A stretch of 15,054 nucleotides of DNA from an uncultured Anaerolineales bacterium (GTDB lineage: Bacteria > Planctomycetota > Phycisphaerae > FEN-1346): NCBI GenBank assembly GCA_964353455.1, contig CAYGWP010000511.1:1-15054 (forward strand), in the 5' to 3' direction. This document shows, in pieces, positions 1 to 14,549 of the stretch. Each line of letters begins with the position of its first letter. The stretch's first letter is position 1. Under the pieces are notes generated by a model. The model was not told the DNA's origin and did not search any database. It saw only the letters and a list, made by a program, of their open reading frames with translations. Both the position numbers and the translations under genes were made by a program.

Positions 1-1307
1 ACGGGTTTCGGCGACGGCGTGGCTAGCGCTGGCTTTACCTCAACCGGTTGCGGCGCGGGGGGCTTGGGCGTCGCGGGCGGTGGACGGCCTGCCGACGGTG
101 TACCGGCAACCTGAGAGGGCGCGAGGGCGGGTCCGCCGACAACGGGCGCAGTGTGCGAGCGCGGCAACGGCGGCGCGGGAGCCGGAGAGGGTGCGGGAGG
201 CACGGGCGCGGCTGGCGCCTTGGCGTCCGGCGTCCTCTTCTCGGATGGCGTAACAGGCCCGGAGGTAGGAGTGCTCAACGCCCAGTACACGACAAAGCCT
301 ATGACCACGAAGGCCGCAAGGCTGATGCCGGCGGCCATGGCTCCGTAGCGGCGGACATCGGTGGCCTCTGGCGCCCCGGCCTCGGCCGGCGGGAGTTTCG
401 TCGGTGCCGCCTCCACCGGCAAGAGCGCAGCGCACGTCGCGGGACGCTTGCGCGGGTCTTTCTCCAAACCGGCCATCAAGGCATCCACAACCGCCCCGCC
501 GCGCTCGGGCCGGGCGGCAGGCACGTGCTCGATCTGGTGCGGAATCTCGCCGCGGTGGAAGGGCGGGTTGCCTGTCAGGCACTCGTACATGGTGGCGGCA
601 AGGCTATAGACGTCCTGGGCGGTGGCGGGAGCGTCGCCGCGCAACTGTTCGGGAGACATATACGGCAGCGTGCCGCTGGTCACCTTGCCCGTGGTGCGGG
701 TGTAGGAGTCGCGCATCTCGCGGGCTATGCCGAAGTCGGTGACGAGGGGCGTGCCGTCGGCGGCGATGAGGATATTGGAGGGCTTCAAGTCGCGGTGGAT
801 GACCTTCTTGGAGTGGGCGAAATCTATCGCCTCGGCGACGGGCCGGAAGAGGCGGAGGACCTCATCTTCGGGCAGCGTGCCGCGCTCAGAGAGAACTTCC
901 TCAAGCGTGCGGCCATCGACGTAGTCCATCACCAGGAAGACGCCGTCGGCCGTCTCCTCGAACGACCGCAGCGTGACGATGTGCGGGTGCGAGAGTTGCA
1001 TGGCCAGCAGGGCCTCTTGCTTGAGGTTCCTGACGGCCCGCGGGTTTCGGGCGAGGACGGCGGCAGGCATCTTGACGGCGACGGGGCGGTCGTCGAGTTT
1101 CCGGTCCGCGGCCAGATAGACCGTGCCCATCGCGCCGCGCCCCAGTTCGCGGATAATGCGGTATCGGCCGGCGAGGATCGTCTCGCCCTTCAGTGTGGGG
1201 GCGGAGTCGAGGGTGTCGCCCGCGTCGCGGCCCGCTGCGTCCTGCGCGCGCTGCGTCTCGCCGAGGTCCAGGTCGTCGAGGTCGTCGTTATGGTTAGCGC
1301 CGGGCAT
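1..1307 (-). CDS. Hanks-type Ser/Thr protein kinase, partial. It reads N-terminal kinase domain, one TM helix, then a Pro-rich extracytoplasmic tail. The C-terminus runs off the left edge of the window.
   Basis: ATG at 1307..1305. Manual minus-strand translation gives MPGANHNDDLDDLDLGETQRAQDAAGRDAGDTLDSAPTLKGETILAGRYRIIRELGRGAMGTVYLAADRKL...VAVK, with a Gly-rich loop and the VAVK lysine. The catalytic loop AIDFAHSKKVIHRDLKPSNI is encoded around 784-843, followed by DFGIARE and an SPE motif. A predicted TM follows (AGISLAAFVVIGFVVYWAL, ~positions 250-310) and then a P/A-rich sequence. I checked every in-frame codon from 1307 down to position 3 and found no stop. The gene is absent from the ORF track, presumably because it has no stop inside the window. 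Confidence 0.85.
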   Translation of the reverse strand, partial: MPGANHNDDLDDLDLGETQRAQDAAGRDAGDTLDSAPTLKGETILAGRYRIIRELGRGAMGTVYLAADRKLDDRPVAVKMPAAVLARNPRAVRNLKQEALLAMQLSHPHIVTLRSFEETADGVFLVMDYVDGRTLEEVLSERGTLPEDEVLRLFRPVAEAIDFAHSKKVIHRDLKPSNILIAADGTPLVTDFGIAREMRDSYTRTTGKVTSGTLPYMSPEQLRGDAPATAQDVYSLAATMYECLTGNPPFHRGEIPHQIEHVPAARPERGGAVVDALMAGLEKDPRKRPATCAALLPVEAAPTKLPPAEAGAPEATDVRRYGAMAAGISLAAFVVIGFVVYWALSTPTSGPVTPSEKRTPDAKAPAAPVPPAPSPAPAPPLPRSHTAPVVGGPALAPSQVAGTPSAGRPPPATPKPPAPQPVEVKPALATPSPKP

Positions 1308-1334
1308 AGTTGGTCAAGCCCACCCCTCACCCTA

Positions 1335-1357
1335 CCCTCTCCCGCAAGGGGAGAGGG
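1335..1357. repeat. Palindromic repeat family B, copy 1: CCCTCTCCC-GCAA-GGGGAGAGGG, a 9-10 bp stem with a 4-nt loop.
   Basis: An exact inverted repeat seen directly in the sequence. It lies in the 119-nt spacer between the coiled-coil gene stop (1427) and the kinase start (1307). On the plus strand the loop reads GCAA. Confidence 0.8.
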
Positions 1358-1426
1358 ATGAAACGGCCAGCCACGGCGAGATTCTTCGGTCGCCGCGGCG
1401 ACCTCAGAATGACAGACTCACGCCGG

Positions 1427-2041
1427 CTATTCGTACTCGGTCTCAAGTTGCTTCAGGCGGTCCTGGGTTTCCTTCGAGAGGCCGGGGGCGGACTTCTCCT
1501 TGTCGGTCCCCTCCATCTCGCCCAGGCGCTGGTCGATGTCAATCGCCTCGCGCTCTTCCTCCTTGAACGTCTCCTTCATCATATCGCGGGTGGCGCGAGA
1601 CTGGGTTTCGAGGACCTCGAACTCCTCCTGCGCCTCGATGGCCACGGTATCGACCTCATCCTCGCTGGCCCCGCGTTCGCGCGCGGCCTTGATCTCGCCG
1701 ATCTTCGACAGCACCGCCGAGACCTGCCGGATGTTGCGCGAGATGATCCGGTGCCGCTCAAGGACGCGGTCGATCTCCTCGAAGGTCCGCTCGATCTCCT
1801 CAGCAATGACCTTGCGTGCAGAGCCTTTGGTCTTCTCGAACTCCTCTTTCTTCTTGAGCGCCCGCGTCTCAAGGCCGTGTATCTCCTCCTTGATTTCCTC
1901 CTCGCGGTCGTGGTTGGCGGCCTTGGCCCCGATGAGTCGGGCCTTGAGGTCCTCAAGGCGCTTGACGTCCGAAAGCCCCAGGCCCACCTTCTCGGCCAGG
2001 CGGCTGATGACGCTGCGAAGTCCCGCTGGAATCTCGGCCAT
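1427..2041 (-). CDS. Highly charged coiled-coil protein of 204 aa. A PspA/IM30 or ESCRT-III-like membrane-remodelling role is possible but unverified.
   Basis: ATG at 2041..2039 is preceded by GGGAGAGGAA (reverse complement of 2048-2057) with a ~6-nt spacer. The start lies 3 nt after the TAA stop (2045-2047) of the upstream peptidase gene, which suggests translational coupling. The protein is E/K/R/I-rich with heptad-like periodicity and no Cys or Trp. It does not look like an R/P/S-rich shadow ORF. It lacks the canonical PspA N-terminal amphipathic helix, so the family is unresolved. Confidence 0.75.
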   Translation of the reverse strand: MAEIPAGLRSVISRLAEKVGLGLSDVKRLEDLKARLIGAKAANHDREEEIKEEIHGLETRALKKKEEFEKTKGSARKVIAEEIERTFEEIDRVLERHRIISRNIRQVSAVLSKIGEIKAARERGASEDEVDTVAIEAQEEFEVLETQSRATRDMMKETFKEEEREAIDIDQRLGEMEGTDKEKSAPGLSKETQDRLKQLETEYE

Positions 2042-2044
2042 GTG

Positions 2045-4441
2045 TTATTCCTCTCCCTCTTTGAGGCGGCTCGCAAGCCGCTTCGTGACCACGCCCGTTG
2101 CATAGACCTGTGCGGCCCCAAATATGATGCCGCCTATGGTAATCGGAGTGCCGTTCACTCCCAACTGTAAAAGTTGCGGGACCACGGCTGCGGCGGCGGC
2201 AACCGCCACGCCGCCGGCGCACGTGCGGGCCACCTTCGAGGCCGTGCTGGGACCGGCGATGCGTATGCCGCCCTCGCCCATGCGCTTGTCGATCGCCAGG
2301 TGTCCGTCGCGCGTCCGGTAGATGCGGTATCCGCCGCGCCCCTGCATTGCCGCAAAGGCGTCGCGGATGGCGCTGCGGCGGTAGCCGGTCTCGCGCTTGA
2401 CGAGTTCCAGGTGCACGTTGCCGCCGTAGTGCGAATCCAGAAGGGCATCGACCTCGGTCTTGATGACCGAGATGCGGTGCTGCCGGGTCTCGGGCACAAG
2501 GCGGTCGAGGAAATCGGCCAGGCTCACGCGGTCGGCAAAGCGCGGCGGCTTACGGACCTGCCATCCGCCCTCCCCTTCGGGCGACGAGCAGACCACCCAA
2601 TGGTCGCCCCCCGCCACGCCGCGCACCGCGCTTTCCCACGCCACGGGCGCGGCCAGCGTGTAGAACGTAAAACGCGGGGCGGCGATGCTCTCGGCCTGCC
2701 GCCACTTCTCGTAGAGCGACCTCGCGAGGTCCACGAGTTCCGCGCTAGGAGTCGGCACGGCGGGGGCTTTGTCTTTCGCCATCACCAGCGGCGTGATGTG
2801 GGCCGCAACCACGTGCACGTCGGCCGAGAGGCCGCGGACGGTATAGACCCGCATCGCGCTGGTGGCGGCAAGTCGCTCCTGGAAATCTGCCGCCCACTTC
2901 AGGCCCGCCGGCACTCCCGCCCGGCCGCGCAGGGCCGAGAGCAGCCGGTCCGTCAGGTCCGCCGGCGGCGAGACATTGCGGATCTTCGGCTCGAACGGCA
3001 GATACGACCAGAACTTCGGGGGATTCACCTCCGGGAACGGCTGCCCCGTGGCGGTCGTCATGTTCTCATCAATGGCCGCAAGGAACCGCTGCTTGTGTGC
3101 TGCGGCGGCCGAGACGGCAGCGCGGAATTCATCCGGCCAGTCGCCCTGCGCGGGAAAGTACGCGGCCGCCTGCGCATCGGGGCTCCACGTGAAACCCATC
3201 CCTGCGAAGCGGCGGCGGTTCGCGGGCGTGTCTTCCATGATGCGGTCCGGGGCGTCGGGCGCGGCGAGGACGGCCGTGCCTGCGGGGAGGAGGCGGCCTT
3301 CCAGGTCGCGGGCGGGCTTGGCGAGGCGACGGACCAACTTGTCGATGTCGCCGCCCGACTCGGCGTGCGCGGCCGACGGCCCGACGAGCGGCCCCGTGAA
3401 CGCCTCGACGGCGTACTTCTCGACATAAGCATACGGCATGAGCGCGTGGCCCGGGGCCTCGGGGCAGTCGGTCGCCCAGGCGTCGCCCCAACTGTTGCGG
3501 ACGATGAAGTACCCTCCGCCGGGCACGTCGGCGTCATCGACGAACCCGACGATGCACCAGGCGTGGCCGACGGGCTGCGGCGTCTCGCCGGGCAGCGGCA
3601 TGGTGATCTTGCCGGTCCGGTTCGTCTCGGCCGACTGGTGCCAACTGGCGAAGACGGCCGTTGCGAAGACGACCGGCATTCCGGGGGCCTCGCCGTCGCC
3701 GGCCAGGGCATGCTTGTATTGATCGACATACGAGGGTTCGACCGTGCGGGCCTCGGGCATCCGGAACTGGCGGGCCTCATCGACCGCGCCGTCGGGAGGC
3801 GGACCTTGAGACTCGTTCCCCGTAACGTTCCGCGGATTATAGGGCCACGTGCCCGCCTGGCAGATGCCGTACTCGTTGAACGCGGCCATCGCCGTATGGA
3901 CATACGACCCCGGCCCCTGGACGCCGTCCAACTCCTTGCTCGCCCAGTACAGGAACTGCTCGGAGAGGGCCGCGCCGGGCCCGGCCAGAAATTCCCGCAG
4001 GGCCGTCGAGGCGAAGGCGGTGCACGTCGGCCGCTCGCCCTGGTTCTTGACGGGCGGGAGTTGATGCATGAGGCGGGCCGCCGCCGGGAGCGCCGGGCGC
4101 TTGCCGGCCCCAGGGGCGGGGCGGCGGCGGGCGGGCAACTCCGCGGCGCGCGCAAGCGCCCCCAGGACCTCGGCGTCAATCAGGCACCCCAGCGGACCGC
4201 CCGGCCGGGGGGCGGCGAGCGCGGCAAACCGCGGACCGAGGATCGTCGAGGCCGTCCGGTGCATCGTGCCGGCTGCGCCCGACGGGAACGGCAGGGCCTT
4301 CTCAAGGAGCGCCGGCTCGGCCGCCGCAACCAGGGCCACATATTCCTCGATGCTCTCGATCCAGAGCGACCGGAGGCGCTCGCGGACGGCCGGCGGAAAC
4401 GCCGCCATCCGCTCAAGCGGCGTGTGACCTTCGATTCTCAT
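2045..4441 (-). CDS. Papain-like (MEROPS C1 family) cysteine peptidase domain, fused to a ~400-aa domain of unknown function and a C-terminal hydrophobic TM anchor. 798 aa from the ATG at 4441.
   Basis: The track ORF begins at a GTG at 4486. An in-frame ATG at 4441..4439 is preceded by a perfect AGGAGG (reverse complement of 4449-4454) with a 7-nt spacer, so I take it as the start. The motif PPVKNQGERPTCTAFAS matches the papain oxyanion-hole Gln plus catalytic Cys region (papain: PVKNQGSCGSCWAFS). GHAWCIVGF supplies the catalytic His and YFIVRNSWGDAWA supplies the catalytic Asn with the NSWG motif. This peptidase domain is encoded at ~3330-4020. There is no N-terminal signal peptide. The C-terminus ends in VAVAAAAAVVPQLLQLGVNGTPITIGGIIFGAAQVYATGVV followed by a basic tail, which I read as a tail anchor. 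Confidence 0.85.
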   Translation of the reverse strand: MRIEGHTPLERMAAFPPAVRERLRSLWIESIEEYVALVAAAEPALLEKALPFPSGAAGTMHRTASTILGPRFAALAAPRPGGPLGCLIDAEVLGALARAAELPARRRPAPGAGKRPALPAAARLMHQLPPVKNQGERPTCTAFASTALREFLAGPGAALSEQFLYWASKELDGVQGPGSYVHTAMAAFNEYGICQAGTWPYNPRNVTGNESQGPPPDGAVDEARQFRMPEARTVEPSYVDQYKHALAGDGEAPGMPVVFATAVFASWHQSAETNRTGKITMPLPGETPQPVGHAWCIVGFVDDADVPGGGYFIVRNSWGDAWATDCPEAPGHALMPYAYVEKYAVEAFTGPLVGPSAAHAESGGDIDKLVRRLAKPARDLEGRLLPAGTAVLAAPDAPDRIMEDTPANRRRFAGMGFTWSPDAQAAAYFPAQGDWPDEFRAAVSAAAAHKQRFLAAIDENMTTATGQPFPEVNPPKFWSYLPFEPKIRNVSPPADLTDRLLSALRGRAGVPAGLKWAADFQERLAATSAMRVYTVRGLSADVHVVAAHITPLVMAKDKAPAVPTPSAELVDLARSLYEKWRQAESIAAPRFTFYTLAAPVAWESAVRGVAGGDHWVVCSSPEGEGGWQVRKPPRFADRVSLADFLDRLVPETRQHRISVIKTEVDALLDSHYGGNVHLELVKRETGYRRSAIRDAFAAMQGRGGYRIYRTRDGHLAIDKRMGEGGIRIAGPSTASKVARTCAGGVAVAAAAAVVPQLLQLGVNGTPITIGGIIFGAAQVYATGVVTKRLASRLKEGEE

Positions 4442-4486
4442 CGTGCGGCCTCCTGCGGTCCCGCGCCTCGGCGCGGCACCGTCCAC

Positions 4487-4509
4487 CCCTCTCCCGCAAG
4501 GGGAGAGGG
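4487..4509. repeat. Palindromic repeat family B, copy 2: CCCTCTCCC-GCAA-GGGGAGAGGG.
   Basis: The same 23-mer as copy 1. It sits in the leader between the small ORF stop (4567) and the peptidase ATG (4441), and overlaps the GTG-extended portion of the track ORF. Confidence 0.8.
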
Positions 4510-4528
4510 TTAACGCCGCTGCGGCGCC

Positions 4529-4556
4529 GCGCGGCGGGTCTCCCGACCCGCCGCGC
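4529..4556. repeat. Palindromic repeat family A: GCGCGGCGGGTC-TCCC-GACCCGCCGCGC, a 12-bp stem with a 4-nt loop.
   Basis: A perfect 12-bp inverted repeat. It lies 20 nt from B copy 2, in the leader of the peptidase gene. The loop is the complement of the loop at 7525-7528, so this copy is inverted relative to the copy at 7513-7540. Confidence 0.8.
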
Positions 4557-4566
4557 AGATGTCAAA

Positions 4567-4890
4567 CTACTGAATGCCGAACCGCCGCTTCTGCTCGTCC
4601 GTCAGGAGCGCCCCGTCGGGCGGGCGGCCGGCGTCGGGCTTCTCGAGGGCGGCGGCGCGCTCGCGGCCGACGGCCGACCGCAGCAATTCAAGCATCCGCG
4701 CGAGGCCCGGCTCGCCGAGTTCCAGAAGTCTCCGCAGCCCCTCTCGCCCCTCGGGCGTGGAGGCAAGGGCCAGGGCCTGCTCGGCCGTGCCGACCCACTG
4801 CCCCGCGAGTCGCTCGAGGGACGCGGCATCGAGGCCCACGACGTCGGCAAGCGGATGGTCCCGGCCCGGCTTTTCGCTCTTCGCTCCCAC
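4567..4890 (-). CDS. Small hypothetical protein of 107 aa with a GTG start.
   Basis: GTG at 4890..4888 is preceded by AAGGA (reverse complement of ~4896-4902). It lies 15 nt downstream of the kinase stop (TAA at 4906-4908). The composition is protein-like and Leu/Glu/Ala-rich rather than Arg/Pro/Ser junk. It fills the gap between two well-supported genes. I found no recognisable domain. Confidence 0.45.
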   Translation of the reverse strand: MGAKSEKPGRDHPLADVVGLDAASLERLAGQWVGTAEQALALASTPEGREGLRRLLELGEPGLARMLELLRSAVGRERAAALEKPDAGRPPDGALLTDEQKRRFGIQ

Positions 4891-7491: not shown

Positions 7492-7512
7492 CAGTTGTCG
7501 GCCCTTACCCCG

Positions 7513-7540: not shown

Positions 7541-7575
7541 AAAGCATGAAGCAATGTTGTCGAGAGGCTCCGTCA

Positions 7576-7600: not shown

Positions 7601-7625
7601 CACTCAAACGGCCCCCTCACCCCGG

Positions 7626-7648: not shown

Positions 7649-7658
7649 AGACAACACG

Positions 7659-7676
7659 CGGCGGACAAGTCCGCCG
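7659..7676. repeat. Stem-loop CGGCGGA-CAAG-TCCGCCG, a 7-8 bp stem.
   Basis: An inverted repeat 23 nt downstream, on the minus strand, of the SPFH gene stop. It may be a terminator or processing hairpin, but no U-tract follows it. Confidence 0.4.
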
Positions 7677-7698
7677 GCTAAATGTTAAGTGTGAGTCA

Positions 7699-9525
7699 TC
7701 ATTTCTGCGGCTTGCCGCACTGGGAGCAGAAGGCGCCGTCGCCCTCGAGTTGGGCGTTGCAGTGTCTGCAACACGGGACGTTGATGACGACGGGCGGCCC
7801 CATGCCGCCACCGCCGGTCACGACCGTTTGAGCGGCATGGTGCGGCGCCTGGGCGCGTGTGACGGCCACGCCGCCCATCTCGTGCATGGCGACGCGTGCG
7901 ACGCGCTCTGTCCGGTTCGCCTCGTTCTGGTAGATGGAACGGATCTCGGCCAGATGTTCCTTGAGTATCCGCGCCTCGCCGACCGCCACCTGCCCCTCGG
8001 CCTCGTACTTCTTGGCGAGCGCTGCGGCGGCATCGGGGGAGGCGGCAGAGAGCACGGCCAGTATCTGTTCGGGGGTCATGTTCTGCTGGGCGCGGAGTTC
8101 CTCCAGGCGTGCGATGCGGTCTGCGGCCGGGCCATCGACGATTGAAAGGAGGGCTGCGGCGGTGGCCTTGCCGCGGGCCTCGAGGGTCCTGGCCTCGACC
8201 TCCTGTGCGTCGAGGGCGCGTTTGTGGTCGAGTTCCTCGACCTCCTCGCGGAGGCGGAGCGCCTCCTCGGCCTGGCGGATGTCCTCGATGTTTTCGAGGC
8301 GCTCGAGTTCCAGTTGGATTTTGCGTTTCTCGGCATCAGTCTTAGCGGTTTCGAGTTCGCGGCGGAGTTGTCGTGTGTGCCCCTCGTCGCGCTGCCGCTC
8401 CTCGGAGATGAGTTCTTCCCAGGCCCTGTCCCGGCGGGCCTTGTCGGAGATGGTTTCGATTTCGATCCGCCGCAGGAGTCCCTCGCGGTCGCGCTCGAAG
8501 CGGAATCGCTCCTTCAGGCGTTCCATCTCGTCTTCGCGGATGACCTGCTTGATGCCGAGTTCATGCTCGGTCTGGCGGACGAAGTCCTCGAAGTCCTTCT
8601 CGGTCTTGAAGGCGTGCATCTTGTCTTCGGTGAGGTTTTCGCGCAGCCGCTGGCCGAGGCGTGTGCGTGCGATCGTAAGTTCGGCCTCCTCCTCAGCGAG
8701 CCTCAGTTCGGCCTTCTCGCGGCGGATCTTCTCGTACGCCTCGCCGAAGAAGCGGATGAACCTGAGTTGCACCAGTTCCAGGCCCAGCCGCGTCAGGGTC
8801 CGCGCAATCGTCTCGCGGAGGTCCTGCTCGATGCGGTTGCGGATCTCAAGTTTCGTAAAGAGGTCCACGGTCGGGTACTGGTGGACGATGCCCGCGAGGA
8901 GCATCTGTACTTCGCCGGCCATCTGCGATTCGAGGTCCGCCAGTTCGACGCGGTTCCGGCCCTTGAAGAGGTTGACGAACATGGCGTCGGGGTCGCGTGC
9001 GCGGAAGACGAGGCGCTCGGCGGTGCCGACCTCCTGGCCGTCTTCGGTCCAGAGGTCGCCGTTCTCGACGTCGATGATGACGTCGCCGGCATCGCAGATG
9101 ATGGCGCTGGCGGGCTCGTGGACGAGGAAGTTGCGGAGTTTGCTGAGGAAGCCGCCCATGTCGTAGCGTCCCTCGCCGAGTTCGCCCTTGAACTCGCCGT
9201 TCTGGAAGAGGAGCGCCCGCGTTCCGTGCTCGACGATGAGGGGCTTGGTGAGCCAGCCCTGGATGTCCTGGTCATCGACGCGGACGGCGAAGTCTTCGGG
9301 CCTGCGCGACCAGCGGTCCTCGATGAGGATGGGCTTGCTCATGATCGCCAGGTCGGCCCCGCACCGCCAGCAGAACTTCGAGGCGGTGCTGACCTCGGCC
9401 TTGCAAGCCCCGCACATGGCCAGGCCCCTGGGGGCGTTTCCGCCGCAGTGCGGGCAGAACCGCGAACCCTTGCGGACCCGCATGTTGCACTCCGGGTTCC
9501 TGCACTTGTCGGTGAAGATTCCCAT
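7699..9525 (-). CDS. SPFH (band-7/flotillin-like) domain protein with two tandem N-terminal zinc ribbons, a long charged coiled coil and a C-terminal zinc ribbon. 608 aa.
   Basis: ATG at 9525..9523 has a strong RBS, AAGGAG with a 6-nt spacer (reverse complement of 9532-9537). The N-terminus carries CRNPECNMRVRKGSRFCPHCG and CGACKAEVSTASKFCWRCG. The central region matches SPFH-core features (...LIVEHGTRALLFQNGEFKGELGEGRYDM..., ...VDLFTKLEIRNRIEQDLRETIARTLTRLGLELVQLRFIRF...), followed by an E/R/A-rich heptad region typical of flotillin/HflK tails. The C-terminus is CCRHCNAQLEGDGAFCSQCG. Confidence 0.8.
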   Translation of the reverse strand: MGIFTDKCRNPECNMRVRKGSRFCPHCGGNAPRGLAMCGACKAEVSTASKFCWRCGADLAIMSKPILIEDRWSRRPEDFAVRVDDQDIQGWLTKPLIVEHGTRALLFQNGEFKGELGEGRYDMGGFLSKLRNFLVHEPASAIICDAGDVIIDVENGDLWTEDGQEVGTAERLVFRARDPDAMFVNLFKGRNRVELADLESQMAGEVQMLLAGIVHQYPTVDLFTKLEIRNRIEQDLRETIARTLTRLGLELVQLRFIRFFGEAYEKIRREKAELRLAEEEAELTIARTRLGQRLRENLTEDKMHAFKTEKDFEDFVRQTEHELGIKQVIREDEMERLKERFRFERDREGLLRRIEIETISDKARRDRAWEELISEERQRDEGHTRQLRRELETAKTDAEKRKIQLELERLENIEDIRQAEEALRLREEVEELDHKRALDAQEVEARTLEARGKATAAALLSIVDGPAADRIARLEELRAQQNMTPEQILAVLSAASPDAAAALAKKYEAEGQVAVGEARILKEHLAEIRSIYQNEANRTERVARVAMHEMGGVAVTRAQAPHHAAQTVVTGGGGMGPPVVINVPCCRHCNAQLEGDGAFCSQCGKPQK

Positions 9526-9558
9526 GCGTTTCTCCTTAACCGCGCCGGAGCCCGGCGG

Positions 9559-10242
9559 CTACAGCGGCCGCGCGGCGTGCCGGACCGCGCGCGTCAGGCC
9601 GCGCAATATGAGCAGGATGATGATCAGCGCCAGGAGCGCCCCGATCAGCAGCAGCGGGTAGCGCCAGAACTCCATGATGGCATCGCTCCAGTGGATGTAC
9701 GCCTCGCCGACCACCGGGCCGCTCGACCAGAGTATCTGGCCGGTCTCAACGTCGGCCATGCGGACGGTCATCTTGACGTAGCCGCGTATGCTCCAGAGGT
9801 TGAGGCCCGATTCCCAGATGTCGCCGTACAGGATGGCATCGACGCCCTTGATCTTGCCGAACTTCTGGACCGTGGCGGAGTCCATCACGTCCTCTCGCTT
9901 GACGCCCCACTCGATCTCGGCCAGCAACTTGTCCCACGTCTCATCGAGGCGCGTGAACAGTTTGAACTGGGACTTCGTGAGGGCGGTCTTCATGGCGTTG
10001 GTGGCGTAGAGGTTGTCGGTGTCGCGCCGCAGCGGGATGACCGCCACGTTCGGCACGTCGGCGAATCGTTTGGGGTCTTCGGCCCGCCTTGCAGCCAGGC
10101 TGTCCTGGACCTGTGCAACGGCGACATCCATGGCCCGCTGTACGGTGTCTTCCTCGCTGGCGGCGGCCGGCGGCGCCGATGCCAGGACCGTCACGAAGAG
10201 TCCGAGGAGGATTGCGGCAGAAAGTCGTGCATGCGTTCTCAT
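9559..10242 (-). CDS. Exported protein of 227 aa with a CsgG/LpoB-like fold. It has an N-terminal signal peptide and a C-terminal TM anchor.
   Basis: ATG at 10242..10240 is preceded by GGGAGA with a 7-nt spacer. The signal peptide is MRTHARLSAAILLGLFVTVLASAPPAAAS. The core VAVIPL...LFTRLDETWDKLLAEIEW...GKIKGVDAILYGDIWES...YVKMTVRMADVETGQILWS follows the CsgG/LpoB/TolB-N pattern (buried [IV]-x-[IV]-x-P, a G-x-D-x-[IL]-x-G strand, and a terminal V-x-L-[IV]-D-x-x-TG-x-[IV]-x-W-S). The C-terminal hydrophobic stretch is LLLIGALLALIIILLILRGL. Confidence 0.7.
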   Translation of the reverse strand: MRTHARLSAAILLGLFVTVLASAPPAAASEEDTVQRAMDVAVAQVQDSLAARRAEDPKRFADVPNVAVIPLRRDTDNLYATNAMKTALTKSQFKLFTRLDETWDKLLAEIEWGVKREDVMDSATVQKFGKIKGVDAILYGDIWESGLNLWSIRGYVKMTVRMADVETGQILWSSGPVVGEAYIHWSDAIMEFWRYPLLLIGALLALIIILLILRGLTRAVRHAARPL

Positions 10243-10283
10243 GGCGTGATCTCCCTATGGTTTCGCGTGGTCTTTGGCAACGG

Positions 10284-11294
10284 TTATTGCCAGTGCCTGC
10301 GTCGGGCGTCGATGACCTCGCCCTTGCGTTCGATGCGTTTGATCTCTATGCCGCCCCTGCGGAGTTCCGACACGTAGGCCGTCAGGAACCGTTCGACGTC
10401 GAAGCGGCAGAGAACTTCGTACACGGCCAACTGCTGCTTGTCGTCCCAGAATTCGAGCGATACGTAGTAGATGCCCGGCCGGGCCTGGAGCCCGACGCGC
10501 AGGTCGTCGGCCTGGTCGGCATTGTCGATGTTGCCGACATACATGCTGACGCGCACGAGGCTGGTGGCCTCCCACTTGCGGACGACCTCGTCCGTCAGGT
10601 AGGTGGCGAGGTCCTTTGCGGCTGATTCCTGCGCGTCCTCGGCGGCCTGTCGCTCATCGAGGGCCCTGCGTCCGCGCTTCAGGATCGTCCGCGACGCGAT
10701 CACCTGGTGCGTCGCCAGGTTCAGCACCTTCGCGTTCATGTTGCTCTCGAAGGACCAGAAGTTGCCGAACTTGTCCTGCTTCTTCGAGTCGCCCTGGACG
10801 ACGATTGCGATATTGCAGTCGTTCGCCTTTCGGAACGCATCCTGCATGCTCTCTGAGGGCGCCGAGCCCATGCTGGACGTGCTCTGGATGACCTTGAAGC
10901 CCAATTCGGCCAGTTTCTGCGTGAGGGCGTTGCGTGCGGCGTCCGACGGCTCGATGCCCGTCGAGAGCACCAGCCGCTCATCCGCGCTCACGATGAGGCG
11001 CTGGAGGTTAAGGAGCGTCTGCTCGATGATCCGCTGCTTCTCGGCGTCCGACATCTGGCCCTTCAGCGGCGGACGGAAACCCGTCACCACGTCGGGCCGC
11101 TGGGCCGGCGGATGCACCGGCACCACCTCCTGCGGCGGCGGAGGAGGCGGCGTCTGGAACTCCGGCCCGGGCCGCACGGGCTGCGCACGCGGACCCGGCC
11201 AATCCGGCTCGTGCCGCCGGTCCGGGCCGCATCCTGAGAGCATTGCGGCCGCCACCACGACAAGAATCCCGATCGCAACTCTGTGCGGCGTCAT
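10284..11294 (-). CDS. Lipoprotein of 336 aa. It has a Pro-rich disordered linker and a C-terminal globular domain of unknown function, possibly an LpoB-like fold.
   Basis: The track ORF starts upstream at 11345. An in-frame ATG at 11294..11292 is preceded by AAGGAG (reverse complement of 11302-11307) with a 7-nt spacer. It gives MTPHRVAIGILVVVAAAMLSGC, a classic SPase II signal with lipobox LSG|C. A ~50-aa Pro-rich tract follows, PGPRAQPVRPGPEFQTPPPPPPQEVVPVHPP. Lipobox plus Pro-rich linker plus globular domain is the LpoB-type layout. The downstream domain is protein-like but I do not recognise it. Confidence 0.75.
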   Translation of the reverse strand: MTPHRVAIGILVVVAAAMLSGCGPDRRHEPDWPGPRAQPVRPGPEFQTPPPPPPQEVVPVHPPAQRPDVVTGFRPPLKGQMSDAEKQRIIEQTLLNLQRLIVSADERLVLSTGIEPSDAARNALTQKLAELGFKVIQSTSSMGSAPSESMQDAFRKANDCNIAIVVQGDSKKQDKFGNFWSFESNMNAKVLNLATHQVIASRTILKRGRRALDERQAAEDAQESAAKDLATYLTDEVVRKWEATSLVRVSMYVGNIDNADQADDLRVGLQARPGIYYVSLEFWDDKQQLAVYEVLCRFDVERFLTAYVSELRRGGIEIKRIERKGEVIDARRRHWQ

Positions 11295-11341
11295 GGTCCG
11301 TCTCCTTTCACCGTTAGATGAATCGTTTTCAATAGGTTCGG

Positions 11342-12604
11342 TCACGTCCTGGAAATCACCAGCCCGGAGTCCTTGGCCTCATATAGCGTGAATTCCCCGC
11401 CGCGGGCAAGTTCGCCGAACGCGGCGCGGACCCAACTCGCGTCGGCCCGGCAGGACCGGACCGCACCGGCCAGCGTCACGGCGTTCTTGCGCTGGACGGC
11501 CTCGCGGATCTCCTCGATGCACCGGGCCAACTCCGCGGCATACCGGGCAGGGGCGACCAGCGGCCAGAACGGCCAGAGGCGCTTGTCGGATTCATCCATG
11601 ATGACCCGGTCGGCCGCAAGGTCCCCGAGCGCCAGGGCGGCCCGCCGGTCGCGGAACGCCTTCGCGTGATGCCGCTTGGCGACCACGGCCGCCGCATCCT
11701 CTGTCCAGCCCGTCGGCGAGGCCACGACGACGACGCGGAAACCTTCCTTGCCCTCGGTCCCGACGATTAAGGAATTCAGATATGCACTAAGTTCTGATTC
11801 GCCGACCGGCTCGACGTCGTACCCCTGCGTGCGGAGCGTCTCGGGCCGCGCCAGAAACCGCGCCTCAAGCACCAGGCACCCCTTGGGCTTTCCCCAGCCG
11901 CCGGTGCGAAGGGTGAAGCGGCTGGCGCGGTTCAGGGGCCCGTGGCCGTCGTCGCGCTGGGGCGATTCGATCTCGTGCGCCACGCGGGCGTCGCGCAGCG
12001 GAATCGCCAGACCTGACAGCGGGTCCGGCAGTTCGTCGATCTCGTCGAGCCGCTGGCCGAACGACCGGAGGAACGTCTCCTCCGCGAGGCGCGCCTCGGC
12101 CGCCGTCGCGACGGGCCGGCCTTCGGCACGCAGCCGCGCGACCGTCTGCTCGACCGTTTCCCTCGCGGCCGGCCTCTCGACCGGCGCGGGGGCAATGGAA
12201 GCAGCCGAGCCCGCCGCGGGAGCGGCGGGGCATATTTCAGTCGATTCCTCCGGCTCTTCCGCCGGGTGCTCTTCGCAAACCCTGATTTTCCGTATCGACC
12301 AGCAGGCCTGGCAGATCTCGCCGCCGCACTCCTCGCATGGGCCGCCGACCGACAATTCGCTCACCATCGCCTTGCCACAGGCCCCGCACCGCAGGCCCTC
12401 CAGGGCCGTCAGGCCGCGCTTGGCCTCGGTGGCGACCCGCTCCTTCTGCTTCTCGAAGTAGGCGTCGAGGTCCTCGGCCCGGACGCGGTAGATGCGACCG
12501 ATCTTGCCGGCGGGTATCTCGCCGCCGCGGACCAGGCGATAGATGGTCTTGTACTCGACCCCAAGCCGGTCCGCCGCTTCTTCCAGTGTCAGATAGTCAG
12601 CCAT
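11342..12604 (-). CDS. Putative DNA-binding protein of 420 aa. It has an N-terminal excisionase/MerR-type helix-turn-helix, a zinc ribbon, and a C-terminal domain of unknown function.
   Basis: ATG at 12604..12602. The N-terminus MADYLTLEEAADRLGVEYKTIYRLVRGGEIPAGKIGRIYRVRAEDLDAYFE is a textbook excisionase-family HTH_17 signature. The zinc ribbon is CGACGK...CEECGGEICQAC at ~12300-12390. The C-terminal ~270 aa is unrecognised. An AT-rich intergenic island lies upstream. Confidence 0.8.
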   Translation of the reverse strand: MADYLTLEEAADRLGVEYKTIYRLVRGGEIPAGKIGRIYRVRAEDLDAYFEKQKERVATEAKRGLTALEGLRCGACGKAMVSELSVGGPCEECGGEICQACWSIRKIRVCEEHPAEEPEESTEICPAAPAAGSAASIAPAPVERPAARETVEQTVARLRAEGRPVATAAEARLAEETFLRSFGQRLDEIDELPDPLSGLAIPLRDARVAHEIESPQRDDGHGPLNRASRFTLRTGGWGKPKGCLVLEARFLARPETLRTQGYDVEPVGESELSAYLNSLIVGTEGKEGFRVVVVASPTGWTEDAAAVVAKRHHAKAFRDRRAALALGDLAADRVIMDESDKRLWPFWPLVAPARYAAELARCIEEIREAVQRKNAVTLAGAVRSCRADASWVRAAFGELARGGEFTLYEAKDSGLVISRT

Positions 12605-12795
12605 GACAGGATTCCGTAGAGATGTCCCCTTTCCAATTGCCGTGGAGTCTGTCGCAATGAGATACGCAAGTCAAGGACTTTTCTTGCCTCACTTACCCGG
12701 AATATCCCTCTCTTTCCCGAGATTTTCATAAGTCGTTGTCGCAAAAGGAATTATGGCCCTCGATATGAGGCACAAACTGCCCCCATGCCAACACG

Positions 12796-12813
12796 CGGTC
12801 GCCAAGGCGACCG
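12796..12813 (-). terminator. Hairpin CGGTCGCC-AA-GGCGACCG downstream of the FHA gene. Possibly an intrinsic terminator-like structure without a U-tract.
   Basis: A perfect 8-bp inverted repeat 24 nt after the FHA gene stop (TGA at 12839..12837). It lies at the edge of the only AT-rich island in the window. Confidence 0.35.
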
Positions 12814-12836
12814 GCTAAATGGGGGCTTCGGGGGTT

Positions 12837-14549
12837 TCACCGCCCGATCTGCTGAAACTCCTTCACGGTGCCGCCCATGTTGCCGAAGGTAACCTTCATG
12901 CCGAGCGCCAGGGGGCACGCGCAGCCACGAGGCACGCCGATGCCGTCGGCCGTCACGCCCTTGTCCTGGACGAGGCTTTCGAGCCAGAACTGGCCGCCAA
13001 GGCGGATGATGCGGACGTGCGCGCGGCGGAGGCCCGCCGTCGGGTCGCGCACCAGCAGTTCGCTGCCTTGCCCGCGGCCGACGTTGGCCCAGCGATAGAC
13101 GACGAGGTACTTCTCATCCTCGGCCAGGTTATCGACGCGCCGGATCATGAGCGACCGTAGTTTCAGGCGCGCCGCCGTCTGCCACAGATCGTCGGCGGAA
13201 CCCAGGGCGCTGTAACGCTTCGGGTCCAATCCCGGCTGGTCTTCAGCATCCCTGAACGGAATCAGCCGCAGGCGCAGTGCCTTCGCCACGTCCACGACGG
13301 ACGGCTGGTCAAGCGGCACCTTGACCTCGCCGCGCACGGCATGGCCGTTAAGTTCCGTGCCGTTCCTGGTGTCCTGGTCGGCGAGGAAAAGGCCGTCGGA
13401 CCGAAGCGACAGGACACAGTGCGGCCCCTTGTGGCCGCTGATCAGAAAAGACAACTTGTCGTTCTCCGGGTTCCTCGGCAGGACGACCAGCGAGATGTCG
13501 CTATTGGATCGGCTGCGGCCCAGGCGAATCTCGGGGATGCCGAGGAGGCACACGCGGGGGGCGTCGGGCTCGGCGGACGAGATGATGGCGGCCCGGTCCA
13601 TCGGCGCGCGCGGCGGCACATGGCCCCTGACGACGCGGACGGGCCGGCCTTCCTTGTCGCGCTGGCGGCGGGTCTCATCCTCGTCGAATGCCAGCGACAG
13701 CGCCGTCCACTGGTCGCTGAACGACCGGTGCATGATCTGGTTCACGTCCTTGACGAGGCCCTCGGAGATGACCTGCTTGGCCTCCTGGCTGACGCTGCTG
13801 CCGAAGATCTTGCTCCCGCCCTCGGGGCGGACGCTCTGGTCGATCTGGACAACGAGGCTCTGGAGGTTCTCAGGCCGCGCCAGCACCATGAGCACCGCCT
13901 GGGCGGTCCAGCAGAACGGCTCGCCGCCGAGTTCGTACTTCAGGGCAAGGTCCACAAGCATCTCGCCGGGAATATCGAGCCTCAACTGCATCCGGTGCCG
14001 CGCATCCCTGTGCGCGGCCAGACGCATCGTACACTCTTGCACCGCGCCGACGAGTTGCCCCGTCACCCTCAGGCAAACGTTGTTCAGGGCCTGGTCGGTC
14101 CCGTTGACGAAACGGAAGTCAAGGACGGCGGCCATATTTTCCATGTAGAAATGGTTATCATTGATTTCGATCGCGACGGCGGGCGGGCGGCCCTCGTCGT
14201 CGCAGACATCGGCCTCGCCGGCCGGGGCAGAGAGCGCCTCCTGCTCCTCGGTCCGGGCCTCCTCCTGCGTCAGACGCAGGTGGTCCCGCTTCTCATCCAG
14301 CGCCCGGCGGTCGTGACCGTCCAGGACGCCGTCGGACCACCGCTGGAGGACTTCCTGGCGGTACTCGGCCACGGCCTTGGCCTTGTCGCGGGGAATCGTC
14401 TCGGCCTGCTCCATAAGATCGCCCGCCGGAGCCGCCGCAGGCGCCCCGGCCGCCGCAGGCGCTGCCGCACGCAGCGCCCCGCCGCACGCGGCGCAGAACG
14501 ACTCCTTGTCGTCGTAGGCCTCCGACCCGCACTTCTCGCAACGTTTCAT
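12837..14549 (-). CDS. Zinc-ribbon protein of 570 aa with two FHA (forkhead-associated, phospho-Thr-binding) domains.
   Basis: ATG at 14549..14547 is preceded by AAGGGGG with a 6-nt spacer. The N-terminus is MKRCEKCGSEAYDDKESFCAACG, a zinc ribbon. FHA domain 1 is LGRSRSNSDISLVVLPRNPENDKLSFLISGHKGPHCVLSLRSDGLFLADQDTRNGTELNGHAV, with the G-R...S..H..L....NGT..NG hallmarks, at ~13340-13570. A second FHA-like region lies at the C-terminus, ~12840-13150 (AHVRIIRLGGQFWLESLVQDKGVTADG...). Confidence 0.85.
   Translation of the reverse strand: MKRCEKCGSEAYDDKESFCAACGGALRAAAPAAAGAPAAAPAGDLMEQAETIPRDKAKAVAEYRQEVLQRWSDGVLDGHDRRALDEKRDHLRLTQEEARTEEQEALSAPAGEADVCDDEGRPPAVAIEINDNHFYMENMAAVLDFRFVNGTDQALNNVCLRVTGQLVGAVQECTMRLAAHRDARHRMQLRLDIPGEMLVDLALKYELGGEPFCWTAQAVLMVLARPENLQSLVVQIDQSVRPEGGSKIFGSSVSQEAKQVISEGLVKDVNQIMHRSFSDQWTALSLAFDEDETRRQRDKEGRPVRVVRGHVPPRAPMDRAAIISSAEPDAPRVCLLGIPEIRLGRSRSNSDISLVVLPRNPENDKLSFLISGHKGPHCVLSLRSDGLFLADQDTRNGTELNGHAVRGEVKVPLDQPSVVDVAKALRLRLIPFRDAEDQPGLDPKRYSALGSADDLWQTAARLKLRSLMIRRVDNLAEDEKYLVVYRWANVGRGQGSELLVRDPTAGLRRAHVRIIRLGGQFWLESLVQDKGVTADGIGVPRGCACPLALGMKVTFGNMGGTVKEFQQIGR

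Follow-up and report, generated by a model that had tools for sequence, protein, structure and literature searches.

Two gene cassettes side by side on a bacterial contig, with possible ties to an ESCRT-III-like membrane system

Introduction

What might a bacterium do with membrane kinases, an FHA protein, an SPFH protein, periplasmic envelope proteins and a papain-like protease encoded side by side? The question is raised by ten closely spaced minus-strand ORFs at positions 2-14549 of a 15,054-bp contig from a planctomycete metagenome-assembled genome; the window analysed here is that whole contig, and its left end is an assembly break. A sequence-only reading had taken the ten genes together as one system; the comparison of neighbourhoods described below does not bear out their conservation as a single syntenic unit. 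Our preferred reading, to which we assign a probability of about one half, is that two cassettes are combined in the window as a hybrid, both from one undescribed bacterial family of systems that are membrane-associated, phospho-regulated and built on ESCRT-III-like proteins and a Vps4-like AAA+ ATPase. In bacterial relatives of this locus, Snf7 (ESCRT-III)-like and Vps4-like ATPase genes share operons, a pairing that recent reviews have called absent from bacteria. The earlier impression that no such combination has been described still stands: PADLOC returned generic kinase and HTH matches only on the window, and the literature that we searched held no matching system.

Results

Layout and borders of the cluster

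The ten co-directional genes read from the sequence were recovered unchanged by a gene call based on conservation and GC3. In coordinate order from K1 to FHA570, the intervals are 119, 3, 80, 15, 144, 33 and 41 nt, a 4-nt overlap and 232 nt. At the right, a divergent plus-strand gene for a signal-peptide protein (14718-15054, read from the sequence, its ATG following GAAAGGAGG and its end cut by the contig) is the upstream border of the cluster and lies outside the system. Domain calls were all confirmed by Pfam, catalytic residues or AlphaFold. Two modules can be delineated: module A comprises FHA570, HTH420, p353, Lpo227 and SPFH-ZnR (7699-14549), followed by the kinase K2 (4906-7554), and module B comprises a 107-aa protein (s107), a peptidase (C1pep) and a 204-aa coiled-coil protein (CC204) at 1427-4890.

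REP-like palindromes and terminator-like hairpins separate these modules, exactly at their borders. A repeat search found three intergenic copies of the palindrome CCCTCTCCCGCAAGGGGAGAGGG, with none expected in shuffles: copy 1 at 1330-1358; copy 2 at 4482-4510, which together with a second palindrome (4529-4556) lies between s107 and C1pep (4482-4556); and copy 3 at 7621-7649. The third copy falls in the block between SPFH-ZnR and K2 (7513-7684), along with another palindrome (7513-7540) and a 33-nt hairpin element (7652-7684) containing a terminator-like stem at 7676-7659; the same element (repeat D13, 82% identity) recurs right after the FHA570 stop at 12789-12821.

Kinases and module A

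Both predicted Hanks-type Ser/Thr kinases are borne out, as are their extracytoplasmic parts. K1 (2-1307; Pfam Pkinase 1.5e-48) continues into a TM helix and, outside the cytoplasm, a Pro-rich region, and is truncated where it runs off the left contig end. K2 (Pkinase 1.2e-40, Beta_helix 2.6e-37, NosD 8.4e-17, Zn_Ribbon_1 1.7e-8) consists of a zinc ribbon, the kinase, a TM helix, an extracytoplasmic TPR-like region and a right-handed beta-helix; its true start is likely M22 at 7491. The two kinase domains are paralogous, with a 271-nt repeat (D1) at 70% identity.

The protein SPFH-ZnR (7699-9525) is laid out much as had been proposed: its SPFH/Band 7 domain is preceded by two zinc ribbons at the N-terminus and followed by a long charged coiled coil, which leads to another zinc ribbon at the C-terminus (Pfam Band_7 6e-7, DZR, Zn_Ribbon_1). 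It is without a TM segment. Its 100 homologue clusters come from Planctomycetota wherever a source is named, and their alignment shows all of the Cys ligands to be invariant. Upstream of it lie a lipoprotein and an LpoB-fold protein; both had been recognized, and which is which is corrected here. The lipoprotein is p353 (10284-11345), with the lipobox LSGC and a Pro-rich linker; its two periplasmic domains are conserved and of unassigned family (no Pfam match, and a weak TrbH match at 0.0049), and it likely starts at M18. Lpo227 (9559-10242; Pfam LpoB 4.9e-7 and family sequences) instead has a signal peptide without Cys and a periplasmic LpoB-like domain, and its C-terminal TM helix leads to a short cytoplasmic tail that is conserved (...RP[LIR]). 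It is related (HMM 2.5e-17) to f11, a TM protein that is encoded next after the AAA ATPase in peptidase-type loci and itself matches Pfam LpoB at 1.4e-4.

HTH420 (11342-12604) combines HTH_17 (Pfam 2.2e-16), a Cys-rich zinc ribbon (73-109, from Cys motifs), as had been anticipated, and a C-terminal domain of ∼260 aa with a conserved SPTGW motif that has no PDB match and no Pfam match. Alignment A9 shows that HTH420 unites the products of two genes found apart in the related loci L008-L012, where the gene for the C-terminal domain lies directly upstream of the f16 and AAA ATPase genes. FHA570 (12837-14549) had been described as a zinc-ribbon protein with two FHA domains. The zinc ribbon (4-23, from a Cys motif) and a canonical FHA domain (342-418; Pfam 4.4e-8) stand, but the second FHA-like region (∼488-556) is degenerate and has only a weak NCBIfam TagH match (1e-3). 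A conserved middle domain (∼121-291) also occurs solo, or fused to a zinc ribbon and an FGE-sulfatase beside a bAvd gene.

The protease triad

C1pep (2045-4486) is indeed a C1 cysteine peptidase with a membrane tail. An N-terminal helical domain (∼22-113) precedes the papain-like peptidase (∼127-365; Pfam Peptidase_C1 1e-7), a mixed alpha/beta middle (380-660) and a winged-helix-like domain (668-733), and a membrane hairpin of two helices (749-812) makes up the C-terminus. Q149, C155, H308, N331 and W333 are invariant in an alignment of 101 sequences, and the AF2 model (pLDDT 91) has a papain fold, with Foldseek matches to xylellain (1.3e-14), cathepsins and papain. From the alignment, the true start is likely M16 at 4441. 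Xylellain (PDB 3ois) and other bacterial papain-like C1A peptidases share the fold, the Gln-Cys-His-Asn catalytic set and an extension ahead of the mature domain; unlike a secreted single-domain protease, however, C1pep faces the cytoplasm from a membrane anchor, has several domains over its 800 aa and belongs to a fixed three-gene cassette. The C1pep N-terminal domain has a free-standing paralogue in the small protein s107 (4567-4890; BLASTP E 0.005 against C1pep residues 23-98). By tblastn the C1pep N-terminus matches s107 genes in six loci, and of the 31 loci that could be assessed, 30 have s107 upstream of C1pep, directly or at a short distance.

CC204 (1427-2041), whose ATG lies 3 nt past the C1pep stop, is a charged helical protein. 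On the basis of AF2 and family alignments, an N-terminal helix leads into a long helical hairpin and another helix, and a disordered linker then connects to the C-terminal helix, which bears a MIM1-like motif (LSxETxxRLKxLE). CC204 has 114 representative homologues; its gene sits directly downstream of C1pep in 17/22 loci and mostly directly upstream of Snf7-like and AAA genes. The model (pLDDT 76; hairpin >90) has an ESCRT-III/PspA-like helix order and a MIM-like tail, but homology to PspA or ESCRT-III, which the earlier reading had put up for testing, is not detectable by sequence: there is no PspA_IM30 or Snf7 Pfam match and no PDB profile match, and comparisons with PspA and Snf7 at the sequence and profile level gave nothing significant. 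Fold searches were non-specific, with generic helical hairpins on top and Vipp1, CHMP and Snf7 structures among the matches. CC204 is the positional counterpart of f16 of the SPFH operons and matches it weakly and in register by hhalign (E 5e-4 and 8e-4), and a C-terminal RLKxL motif is common to CC204 and the Snf7-like f6.

Relatives of the two modules and their common partners

Module A is found again in 20 Planctomycetota loci and module B in ∼30 loci scattered patchily across several phyla, but the two occur together nowhere outside this contig: a full peptidase is encoded in 0/20 SPFH loci, and SPFH, Lpo and p353 in none of ∼35 loci with a full-length-type peptidase. The cluster is thus not one conserved unit. 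Each half is nonetheless conserved. Among 18 SPFH loci, Lpo lies directly upstream of SPFH in 12, p353 is present in 13, an HTH-ZnR gene or the HTH420 C-terminal domain in 15 and an FHA570-like gene in 11; a membrane kinase directly follows SPFH in nine related loci.

Relatives of both halves are operonic with Snf7-like and Vps4_C AAA+ ATPase genes, which bears out, beyond what the sequence alone could show, the earlier idea that a membrane-remodelling core is joined to phospho-Thr signalling. The SPFH operons carry f16 in nine cases, AAA_f2 in nine and Snf7_f19 in six; one locus (L103) reads FHA, HTH420, f16, AAA, SPFH, ZnR-kinase, FGE-sulfatase, Snf7, AAA, a 356-aa protein and FHA-PP2C. Where module B loci have enough flank, Snf7-like and AAA genes are present in 15/17, and CC204 comes first in a string of CC204, Snf7, AAA ATPase and LpoB-TM. 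The f6 profile finds yeast Snf7 in the PDB at 1.1e-6, Pfam Snf7 matches stand at 3.5e-5 and 6.2e-4, and f19 matches f6 with 86% probability (hhalign). The partner ATPase has a single AAA domain and a Vps4_C motif (23.1 bits, cut-off 21.3); its AAA domain is by sequence closer to Cdc48/p97 D2 than to Vps4, and its N-terminal domain has no significant MIT match.

The accessory genes common to relatives of both modules are AAA_f2, Snf7-like, the LpoB-TM family, f23, zinc-ribbon FGE-sulfatase proteins and bAvd. From the alignment, HTH420 is a Rosetta-stone fusion linking the SPFH sub-operon with the f16/AAA sub-operon. In one locus (L005), a protein with the C1pep middle domain only comes after SPFH. 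Kinases are rare beside the triad elsewhere (2/30 loci); they flank the peptidase in L054 and follow a short-form C1pep homologue in L066. Caspase-like Peptidase_C14 genes occur in 13/30 peptidase-type loci and FGE-sulfatase zinc-ribbon proteins in 8/30, and some of these loci hold DGR parts (bAvd and reverse transcriptase); FGE-sulfatase occurs in 11/21 SPFH-type loci, including fusions to kinases, with bAvd in L006 and L102.

Discussion

How might these parts work together? In the two-cassette reading, the lipoprotein p353 and the TM-anchored Lpo227 would form a periplasmic sensing or tethering arm, which Lpo227, through its TM helix and its conserved tail in the cytoplasm, could join to the soluble SPFH-coiled-coil-zinc-ribbon protein, a putative scaffold oligomerising beneath the inner membrane. 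K2, with its periplasmic beta-helix as input domain, would phosphorylate Thr on components, and FHA570 would read the marks. The C-terminal domain of HTH420 may couple module A to the coiled-coil/AAA/Snf7 unit, and its HTH may add transcriptional feedback. C1pep is predicted to be an active protease held at the membrane by its helical hairpin, with s107, the free duplicate of its N-terminal domain, likely a regulator or decoy, and CC204 is probably translationally coupled to C1pep. The output could be either membrane repair or remodelling, or protease-mediated cell suicide, and may serve envelope repair or conflict.

The domains, the catalytic residues and fold of C1pep, the synteny of each module and the Snf7/Vps4_C identity of the common partners all argue for the two-cassette reading, as do the inter-module ties (Lpo227-f11, the HTH420 fusion, CC204-f16 and the RLKxL motif). 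Against it, the window stops 1.4 kb past the CC204 gene and contains neither a Snf7-like nor an AAA gene; we link this locus to Snf7/AAA because of the association in other genomes, and such genes would presumably be found elsewhere in this organism. The lack of significant CC204 similarity to PspA or Snf7, its generic fold matches and the Cdc48-like leaning of the partner AAA domain, with an N-terminal domain not significantly MIT-like, also count against it. So do the separation of the modules in all other loci and the palindromes and hairpins between them, with which a chance adjacency would agree. Precedent comes from archaeal ESCRT loci (the 'Main', 'Halo_FHA' and 'Meth_adaptin' groups), in which Vps4 and ESCRT-III are accompanied by Ser/Thr kinase, phosphatase, FHA, winged-helix and SPFH-coiled-coil-zinc-ribbon partners (Makarova et al. 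2024, PMC10936438). Membrane Ser/Thr kinases, FHA, SPFH-coiled-coil-zinc-ribbon and winged-helix-like domains are shared with this locus, and its relatives add a Snf7-like gene directly beside a single-domain AAA+ with Vps4_C, and an FHA-PP2C phosphatase (L103). In contrast to the archaeal loci, the hosts here are bacteria of the Planctomycetota and further phyla, adaptin-like and ESCRT-II proteins were not found, the Snf7/AAA genes are absent from the window, and the ATPase is termed Vps4-like only; the periplasmic LpoB-like and lipoprotein parts, the HTH_17 protein, the papain-like protease and, only in related loci, caspases and DGR-linked FGE-sulfatase proteins are extra.

A second explanation, possible though on the doubtful side, is a conflict or defence island in which kinases with variable ligand-binding ectodomains sense invaders, FHA570 is the relay, the protease is a death or immunity effector like the caspases of related loci, and membrane damage is either inflicted or kept in check by the SPFH and ESCRT-III-like parts. 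Multicellular bacteria have conflict systems that are NTP- or kinase-regulated, with caspase/trypsin effectors and DGR-diversified FGE-sulfatase/C-type-lectin sensors, the diversified kinase/FGE-sulfatase proteins being proposed antigen sensors (Kaur et al. 2020, PMC7159879; Dore et al. 2024, PMC10907252). The caspase, FGE-sulfatase and DGR genes of the related loci, the patchy spread of the triad and the doubling of the effector domain as the small, free, adaptor-like s107 all fit. However, genes for DGR, caspase, nuclease, TIR or STAND NTPase functions and a MoxR-vWA core are all missing from the window, PADLOC gave generic kinase and HTH matches only, a search limited to plasmid sequences found neither protein at full length, and the apparently phylum-restricted, stably ordered SPFH module is more like a cell-envelope system. 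Snf7/Vps4-like, SPFH, LpoB-like and ∼800-aa C1 peptidase proteins are not described in those two papers.

Alternatively, two or three unrelated co-directional operons (the SPFH envelope module, the protease triad and stand-alone kinases) may adjoin incidentally in a gene-dense genome, with no functional link. The complete separation of the modules elsewhere, the palindromes and hairpins at their borders and the rarity of kinases beside the triad speak for such incidental adjacency, which we consider unlikely given the common accessory gene pool, the CC204-f16 correspondence, the SPFH-linked protein of L005 and the kinases of L054 and L066.

Last, a classical phage-shock-like envelope stress operon with CC204 as PspA is already disfavoured and very improbable: the SPFH protein with its C-terminal zinc ribbon, the many zinc-ribbon proteins, the CC204 model and the Vipp1, CHMP and Snf7 structures among its fold matches recall it, but CC204 matches neither PspA_IM30 nor Snf7 in Pfam and no PDB profile, YdjG-like, YdjH (TPM), PspB, PspC and PspF genes are missing, and CC204 is genetically tied to protease and Snf7/AAA genes, not to the SPFH gene. 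The parallel drawn earlier with B. subtilis pspA-ydjGHI, where the SPFH protein YdjI recruits PspA (PMC11237479), is still apt as to theme: ESCRT-III-superfamily proteins, an SPFH protein with a C-terminal zinc ribbon and further zinc-ribbon proteins beneath the membrane. Unlike that operon, this locus is without PspA_IM30, YdjG (NTF2-like) and YdjH, its SPFH protein is extended by zinc ribbons at the N-terminus and by a ∼300-aa coiled coil, and it adds Hanks kinases, FHA, periplasmic LpoB-like proteins and a protease.

Two cassettes in one gene cluster

All ten of the co-directional minus-strand genes proposed by the sequence-only reading are present, at intergenic distances that run from a 4-nt overlap up to 232 nt, and the same ten ORFs are chosen by a gene call weighted on cross-locus conservation and third-position GC. 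This call replaced a greedy longest-ORF call, which selected shadow ORFs in DNA of ~68% GC. The window is an entire MAG contig of 15,054 bp, and the Hanks-type kinase K1 (2–1307) is open at its left end. The right boundary is defined by a divergent plus-strand gene upstream of FHA570, encoding a signal-peptide protein and preceded by a good Shine–Dalgarno sequence, which starts at 14718 and is cut by the contig end (14718–15054). Pfam bears out the SPFH, FHA, C1-peptidase, LpoB-like, HTH, and kinase assignments of the earlier reading, with two Pkinase domains, one each in K1 and K2; NCBIfam added nothing specific for the window proteins.

Do these ten genes form one conserved module, as had been claimed? 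In a synteny test across related loci, they separate into an SPFH-anchored module (FHA570, HTH420, p353, Lpo227, and SPFH, followed by K2) and a protease triad (s107, C1pep, and CC204), each conserved apart from the other, and the two are never found together in the sampled loci. Full-length C1pep or CC204 is found in 0 of 20 SPFH loci, and because none of the examined peptidase-type loci, i.e. those anchored on C1pep, carries an SPFH, Lpo, or p353 gene, the ten-gene cluster is composite when judged by synteny. The arrangement in the window, where the triad neighbors the SPFH module and has a kinase on either side, is unusual. Our main reading, to which we assign a probability of about one half, is that the window is a hybrid of two cassettes that belong to one family of phospho-regulated membrane systems linked to ESCRT-III and AAA proteins.

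The SPFH module

FHA570 (12837–14549) carries a zinc ribbon read from Cys motifs (residues 4–23) and an FHA domain at residues 342–418 (4.4e-8, 33.9 bits vs the Pfam cut-off of 20.7) with conserved Gly-Arg, Ser-x-x-His, and Asn-Gly motifs. The dual-FHA assignment made earlier stands for this canonical copy; the second copy (~488–556) is degenerate, without the Ser and Asn-Gly motifs, and gives a weak match to TagH. HTH420 (11342–12604) matches HTH_17 (2.2e-16, Pfam) and has a zinc ribbon at residues 73–109, also read from Cys motifs. The lipoprotein and the LpoB-fold protein of the sequence-only reading are both present and differ in detail: the lipobox is in p353 (10284–11345), and Lpo227 (9559–10242) has a signal peptide without Cys and a C-terminal transmembrane anchor instead of a lipobox. 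The LpoB domain of Lpo227 spans residues 80–174 (4.9e-7, 30.2 bits vs a Pfam cut-off of 22.3), and for the LpoB equivalog TIGR02722 of NCBIfam the score is 29 bits (cut-off 110.55); judged by these profiles, Lpo227 is a member of the LpoB fold family but no LpoB orthologue. SPFH (7699–9525) matches Band_7 at residues 97–285 (6e-7, 30.1 bits vs the Pfam gathering score of 23.6), its family profile finds no sequence match in the PDB, and its C-terminal CxxC...CxxC, a Zn_ribbon_15 match at residues 583–604, has invariant Cys residues. K2 (4906–7554) joins its kinase domain to a right-handed beta-helix, and Pfam places zinc ribbons on both K2 and SPFH.

Homologues of SPFH form 100 clusters and come from Planctomycetota wherever the source is named. 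One 51%-identical gene lies on a contig filed under a "Mollicutes bacterium" MAG (PWYL01000047.1), a label that is probably a binning error since the distribution is otherwise confined to Planctomycetota. Neighborhoods were compared in 17 genome loci and three metagenome loci, with genes mapped by tblastn and family HMMs. Counted as lower bounds, as are the locus counts for the triad, because the scans were pattern-limited and metagenome contigs are fragmentary, one or two Lpo copies lie immediately upstream of SPFH in 12 of 18 assessable loci, p353 is found in 13/18, an HTH-zinc-ribbon gene or the C-terminal domain of HTH420 in 15/18, and an FHA570-like gene in 11/18; a membrane kinase immediately follows SPFH in 9 loci. 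HTH420 itself is a fusion. In five loci (L008–L012), two genes encode its parts: the HTH-zinc-ribbon part lies immediately upstream of p353-Lpo-SPFH, and the ~260-aa C-terminal part immediately upstream of a coiled-coil gene (f16) and an AAA gene. In another locus (L014, 4132–6507), the C-terminal domain is fused to a Hanks kinase in a 791-aa protein, encoded immediately upstream of f16, an AAA ATPase, and a Snf7-like gene. No PDB or Pfam match was found for this domain.

The protease triad

C1pep (2045–4486) matches the C1 family of Pfam (1e-7, 32.7 bits vs a cut-off of 20.7), and Gln149, Cys155, His308, Asn331, and Trp333 are invariant among 101 sequences. In an AF2 model (pLDDT 91), the papain domain is matched by Foldseek to xylellain, cathepsins, and papain, with a TM-score of ~0.75 to xylellain and papain. 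From the Pfam match, the catalytic Gln-Cys-His-Asn set, and the predicted papain fold, we conclude that C1pep is a family C1 papain-like cysteine peptidase. Other parts of the model are a helical domain at the N-terminus, a large alpha/beta region in the middle, a unit resembling a winged helix (residues 668–733), and, at the C-terminus, two long hydrophobic helices. The 107-aa protein s107 (4567–4890) repeats the N-terminal domain of C1pep as a separate polypeptide.

More than 120 full-length homologues of ~800 aa were found, in phyla named by their sources as Planctomycetota, Verrucomicrobiota, Thermodesulfobacteriota, and Hydrogenedentes, and a plasmid collection matched the bare peptidase domain only, with SPFH unmatched. 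In neighborhoods drawn from database look-ups and 80 metagenome loci, s107 is upstream of C1pep in 30 of 31 assessable loci, and CC204 (1427–2041 in the window) is immediately downstream in 17 of 22, typically 3–9 nt past the stop codon.

The more distant C1pep matches (L058–L101) span residues 22–364 only. Among them, L082–L101 (e.g. L086, 9989–12796) constitute a distinct C1 peptidase family that shares the N-terminal and papain parts of C1pep; the surroundings of these ~935-aa peptidases are of a RecO/SMC/PNP housekeeping kind, and we excluded L082–L101 as having no relation to the cassette. Their gene order is fixed: RecO, a bPH-SHOCT protein, a purine-nucleoside-phosphorylase-like protein, the peptidase, and a STAS protein, with SMC adjoining. 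Unlike these, L066 has a short C1pep match followed by kinases.

Snf7-like and AAA partners in related loci

Beyond CC204, the usual order in peptidase-type loci continues with f6 (~218 aa), the AAA ATPase f2 (~375 aa), whose start overlaps the f6 stop, a transmembrane protein (f11), and a DUF4384 protein (f15); this continuation is seen in 15 of the 17 loci with enough flank. The f6 profile matches yeast Snf7 structures in the PDB at 1.1e-6 and Snf7 of Pfam at 3.5e-5, under the gathering score. A second family, f19, matches Pfam Snf7 at 6.2e-4, likewise under the gathering score, and aligns to f6 with 86% probability in hhalign. By these profile comparisons, a Snf7-family protein is present in related loci and none is present in the window. 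The Snf7/AAA association comes only from other genomes, because the window contig stops 1.4 kb past CC204.

How close is the ATPase to Vps4? The architecture of f2 is one AAA domain, an AAA lid, and Vps4_C in Pfam, the last scoring just above its cut-off of 21.3 in one locus (23.1 bits, L041) and only 17.1 bits in another (L010). In the PDB, Cdc48/p97 D2 and VAT match best, with Vps4B at 5e-44. The N-terminal helical domain matches the MIT region of Vps4B at E 4.1 only, a non-significant value. Our label "Vps4-like" is based on architecture and context; by sequence, the AAA domain of f2 is nearest to Cdc48/p97 D2.

SPFH-type loci hold an equivalent set within the same operon: f16 in 9, the f2-type AAA gene in 9, and the Snf7-like f19 in 6. 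The coiled-coil protein f16 (~210 aa) shows no relation to the Snf7 families, and its profile finds nothing in the PDB. An example of the order (L103) is FHA570, HTH420, f16, AAA, SPFH, a zinc-ribbon kinase, an FGE-sulfatase, Snf7, AAA, a 356-aa protein, and FHA-PP2C. This last gene (18017–19708), at the end of the locus, encodes an FHA-SpoIIE (PP2C) phosphatase that completes a kinase/phosphatase/FHA set resembling the one in archaeal ESCRT loci. Bacterial operons with Snf7-like proteins beside a Vps4_C-bearing AAA+ ATPase recur in this locus family.

Is CC204 itself a PspA or ESCRT-III protein, as the sequence-only reading raised? Sequence comparison does not support this identity: CC204 has no Pfam match, profiles of 19 and 92 homologues retrieve generic coiled coils from the PDB and no ESCRT-III or PspA chain, and hhalign gives a probability below 1% against the Snf7-like f6 and f19. 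An exhaustive HMMER search found 114 representative homologues, nearly all ~200 aa; a word-indexed search had returned one match only. The AF2 model (pLDDT 76, hairpin >90) has helices at residues 6–18, 23–70, 74–121, and 127–155, a disordered linker, and a confident C-terminal helix (190–203), and as modeled this helix order resembles the ESCRT-III layout; in a Foldseek fold search, the best E was 0.37 and ESCRT-III was not singled out. The C-terminal consensus LSxETxKRLKxLE resembles MIM1 in sequence and is similar to the RKRLKxLL end of f6. CC204 homologues lie immediately upstream of the Snf7-like and AAA genes in most loci, with no AAA gene in the window, and CC204 aligns weakly and in register with f16 (E 5e-4 and 8e-4). 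Because CC204 combines the predicted layout and the motif but lacks significant sequence similarity, we treat it as a putative ESCRT-III-like or ESCRT-III-partner protein.

Competing explanations and significance

The alternative that fares best is a conflict or defense system in which the protease is the effector, a possible though rather doubtful reading in our estimation. It is favored by caspase and DGR neighbors in related loci: peptidase-type loci have caspase-like genes in 13/30, DGR reverse transcriptase in 2/30, FGE-sulfatase in 8/30, and kinase in 2/30, and the corresponding counts in SPFH-type loci are 2/21, 0/21, 11/21, and 14/21, the FGE-sulfatase there being often fused to a kinase or zinc ribbon. 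Published conflict systems include caspases, kinases, and DGR-diversified FGE-sulfatase sensors, and those papers do not cover Snf7, Vps4, SPFH, or a C1pep-type protease (PMC7159879, PMC10907252). The window has no caspase, FGE-sulfatase, or DGR gene, and PADLOC v2 returned generic kinase models (PD-T4-6, mad6, PglW) and the mad1 HTH only, with no system-specific protein set of an anti-phage system and 7 of the 10 window proteins without any match. The wiring of the conflict reading overlaps that of the hybrid membrane system; the output differs. In one SPFH-type locus (L006, 2656–4707), an FHA570 paralogue retains the zinc ribbon and middle domain and has a zinc ribbon and FGE-sulfatase in place of the FHA domains; its product is probably a DGR-diversified variable protein, because a bAvd gene directly follows.

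Incidental adjacency of unrelated operons is improbable; accessory families common to the loci of both modules speak against it. Family f23 and bAvd occur in both locus types (bAvd in L006 and L102 of the SPFH type and in L020 and L033 of the peptidase type), and f11 carries an LpoB domain and is related to Lpo227 (2.5e-17). Apart from the window, SPFH was found linked to a domain derived from C1pep only in L005, where an ORF (2050–2781) right after the SPFH gene encodes the C1pep middle domain only (residues 380–567, 41% identity), without the peptidase. A classical PspA/YdjI-type operon is very improbable: SPFH does have the C-terminal zinc ribbon of YdjI, and PspA-YdjGHI is linked to Band-7 (Ravi et al., PMC11237479), but none of the ten window proteins matches PspA_IM30, a YdjG-like protein, or the TPM domain of YdjH from Bacillus subtilis pspA-ydjGHI.

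The hybrid reading finds its closest parallel in archaea, where ESCRT loci contain kinases, phosphatases, FHA and winged-helix proteins, and an SPFH-coiled-coil-zinc-ribbon protein (Makarova et al., PMC10936438); the bacterial locus family shares the kinase, FHA, and SPFH-zinc-ribbon partners. A bolder proposal, which we offer as speculative and would not bet on, is that Planctomycetota and several other bacterial phyla hold genuine ESCRT-III(Snf7)/Vps4-type membrane-remodeling machines, connected in archaeal style to Ser/Thr kinases, FHA readers, and scaffolds of the SPFH-zinc-ribbon type, to which bacteria would have added trans-envelope sensors resembling LpoB and proteases of papain or caspase type, with the SPFH and protease arms of the window feeding one machine. 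ESCRT components have been described as identifiable in archaea "but not in bacteria" (PMC10936438), and a 2025 review states that a Vps4-like ATPase "appears absent in bacteria" (PMC7619361); Ravi et al. report that Vps4-like ATPases have been transferred only sporadically, to some bacteria in which snf7 is displaced, and that transporter operons contain some homologues of Snf7 together with AAA+ ATPases (PMC11237479). If true, the proposal would contradict the current view that Vps4-like ATPases are absent from bacteria and would provide a candidate membrane scission or repair machine in a phylum of unusual membrane biology. Confirmation would also yield a testable bacterial model of regulated ESCRT-III dynamics, tie flotillin-like scaffolds and periplasmic sensors to ESCRT-III machinery, and establish the membrane-anchored papain-like proteases as a new family. 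For annotation, two reusable cassettes can be distinguished, the SPFH module and the s107-C1pep-CC204 triad, both "hypothetical" at present and neither described in a full-text literature search.

Intergenic elements

A REP-like palindrome, CCCTCTCCCGC(A/G)AGGGGAGAGGG, occurs in three intergenic copies (1330–1358, 4482–4510, and 7621–7649), where 200 shuffles gave an expectation of 0; its core motif is found in only two of the 104 fetched loci (L088 and L100), and in ORF lists the copies produce spurious "PLPxGERG" peptides. A second, perfect palindrome pair of 28 nt (4529–4556 and 7513–7540) flanks K2 and s107. A 33-nt element (7652–7684 and 12789–12821), a GC hairpin with a T-poor tail, lies ~15 nt 3' of the SPFH and FHA570 stop codons and may act in attenuation or RNA stability. 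All of these elements fall at the borders between FHA570, the HTH420-to-SPFH block, K2-s107, C1pep-CC204, and K1, and their positions suggest that the cluster comprises several transcription or processing units, not a single ten-gene operon. Within the coding regions, a 271-nt direct repeat (534–804 vs 6682–6952, 70% identity) is due to the paralogous kinase domains of K1 and K2.
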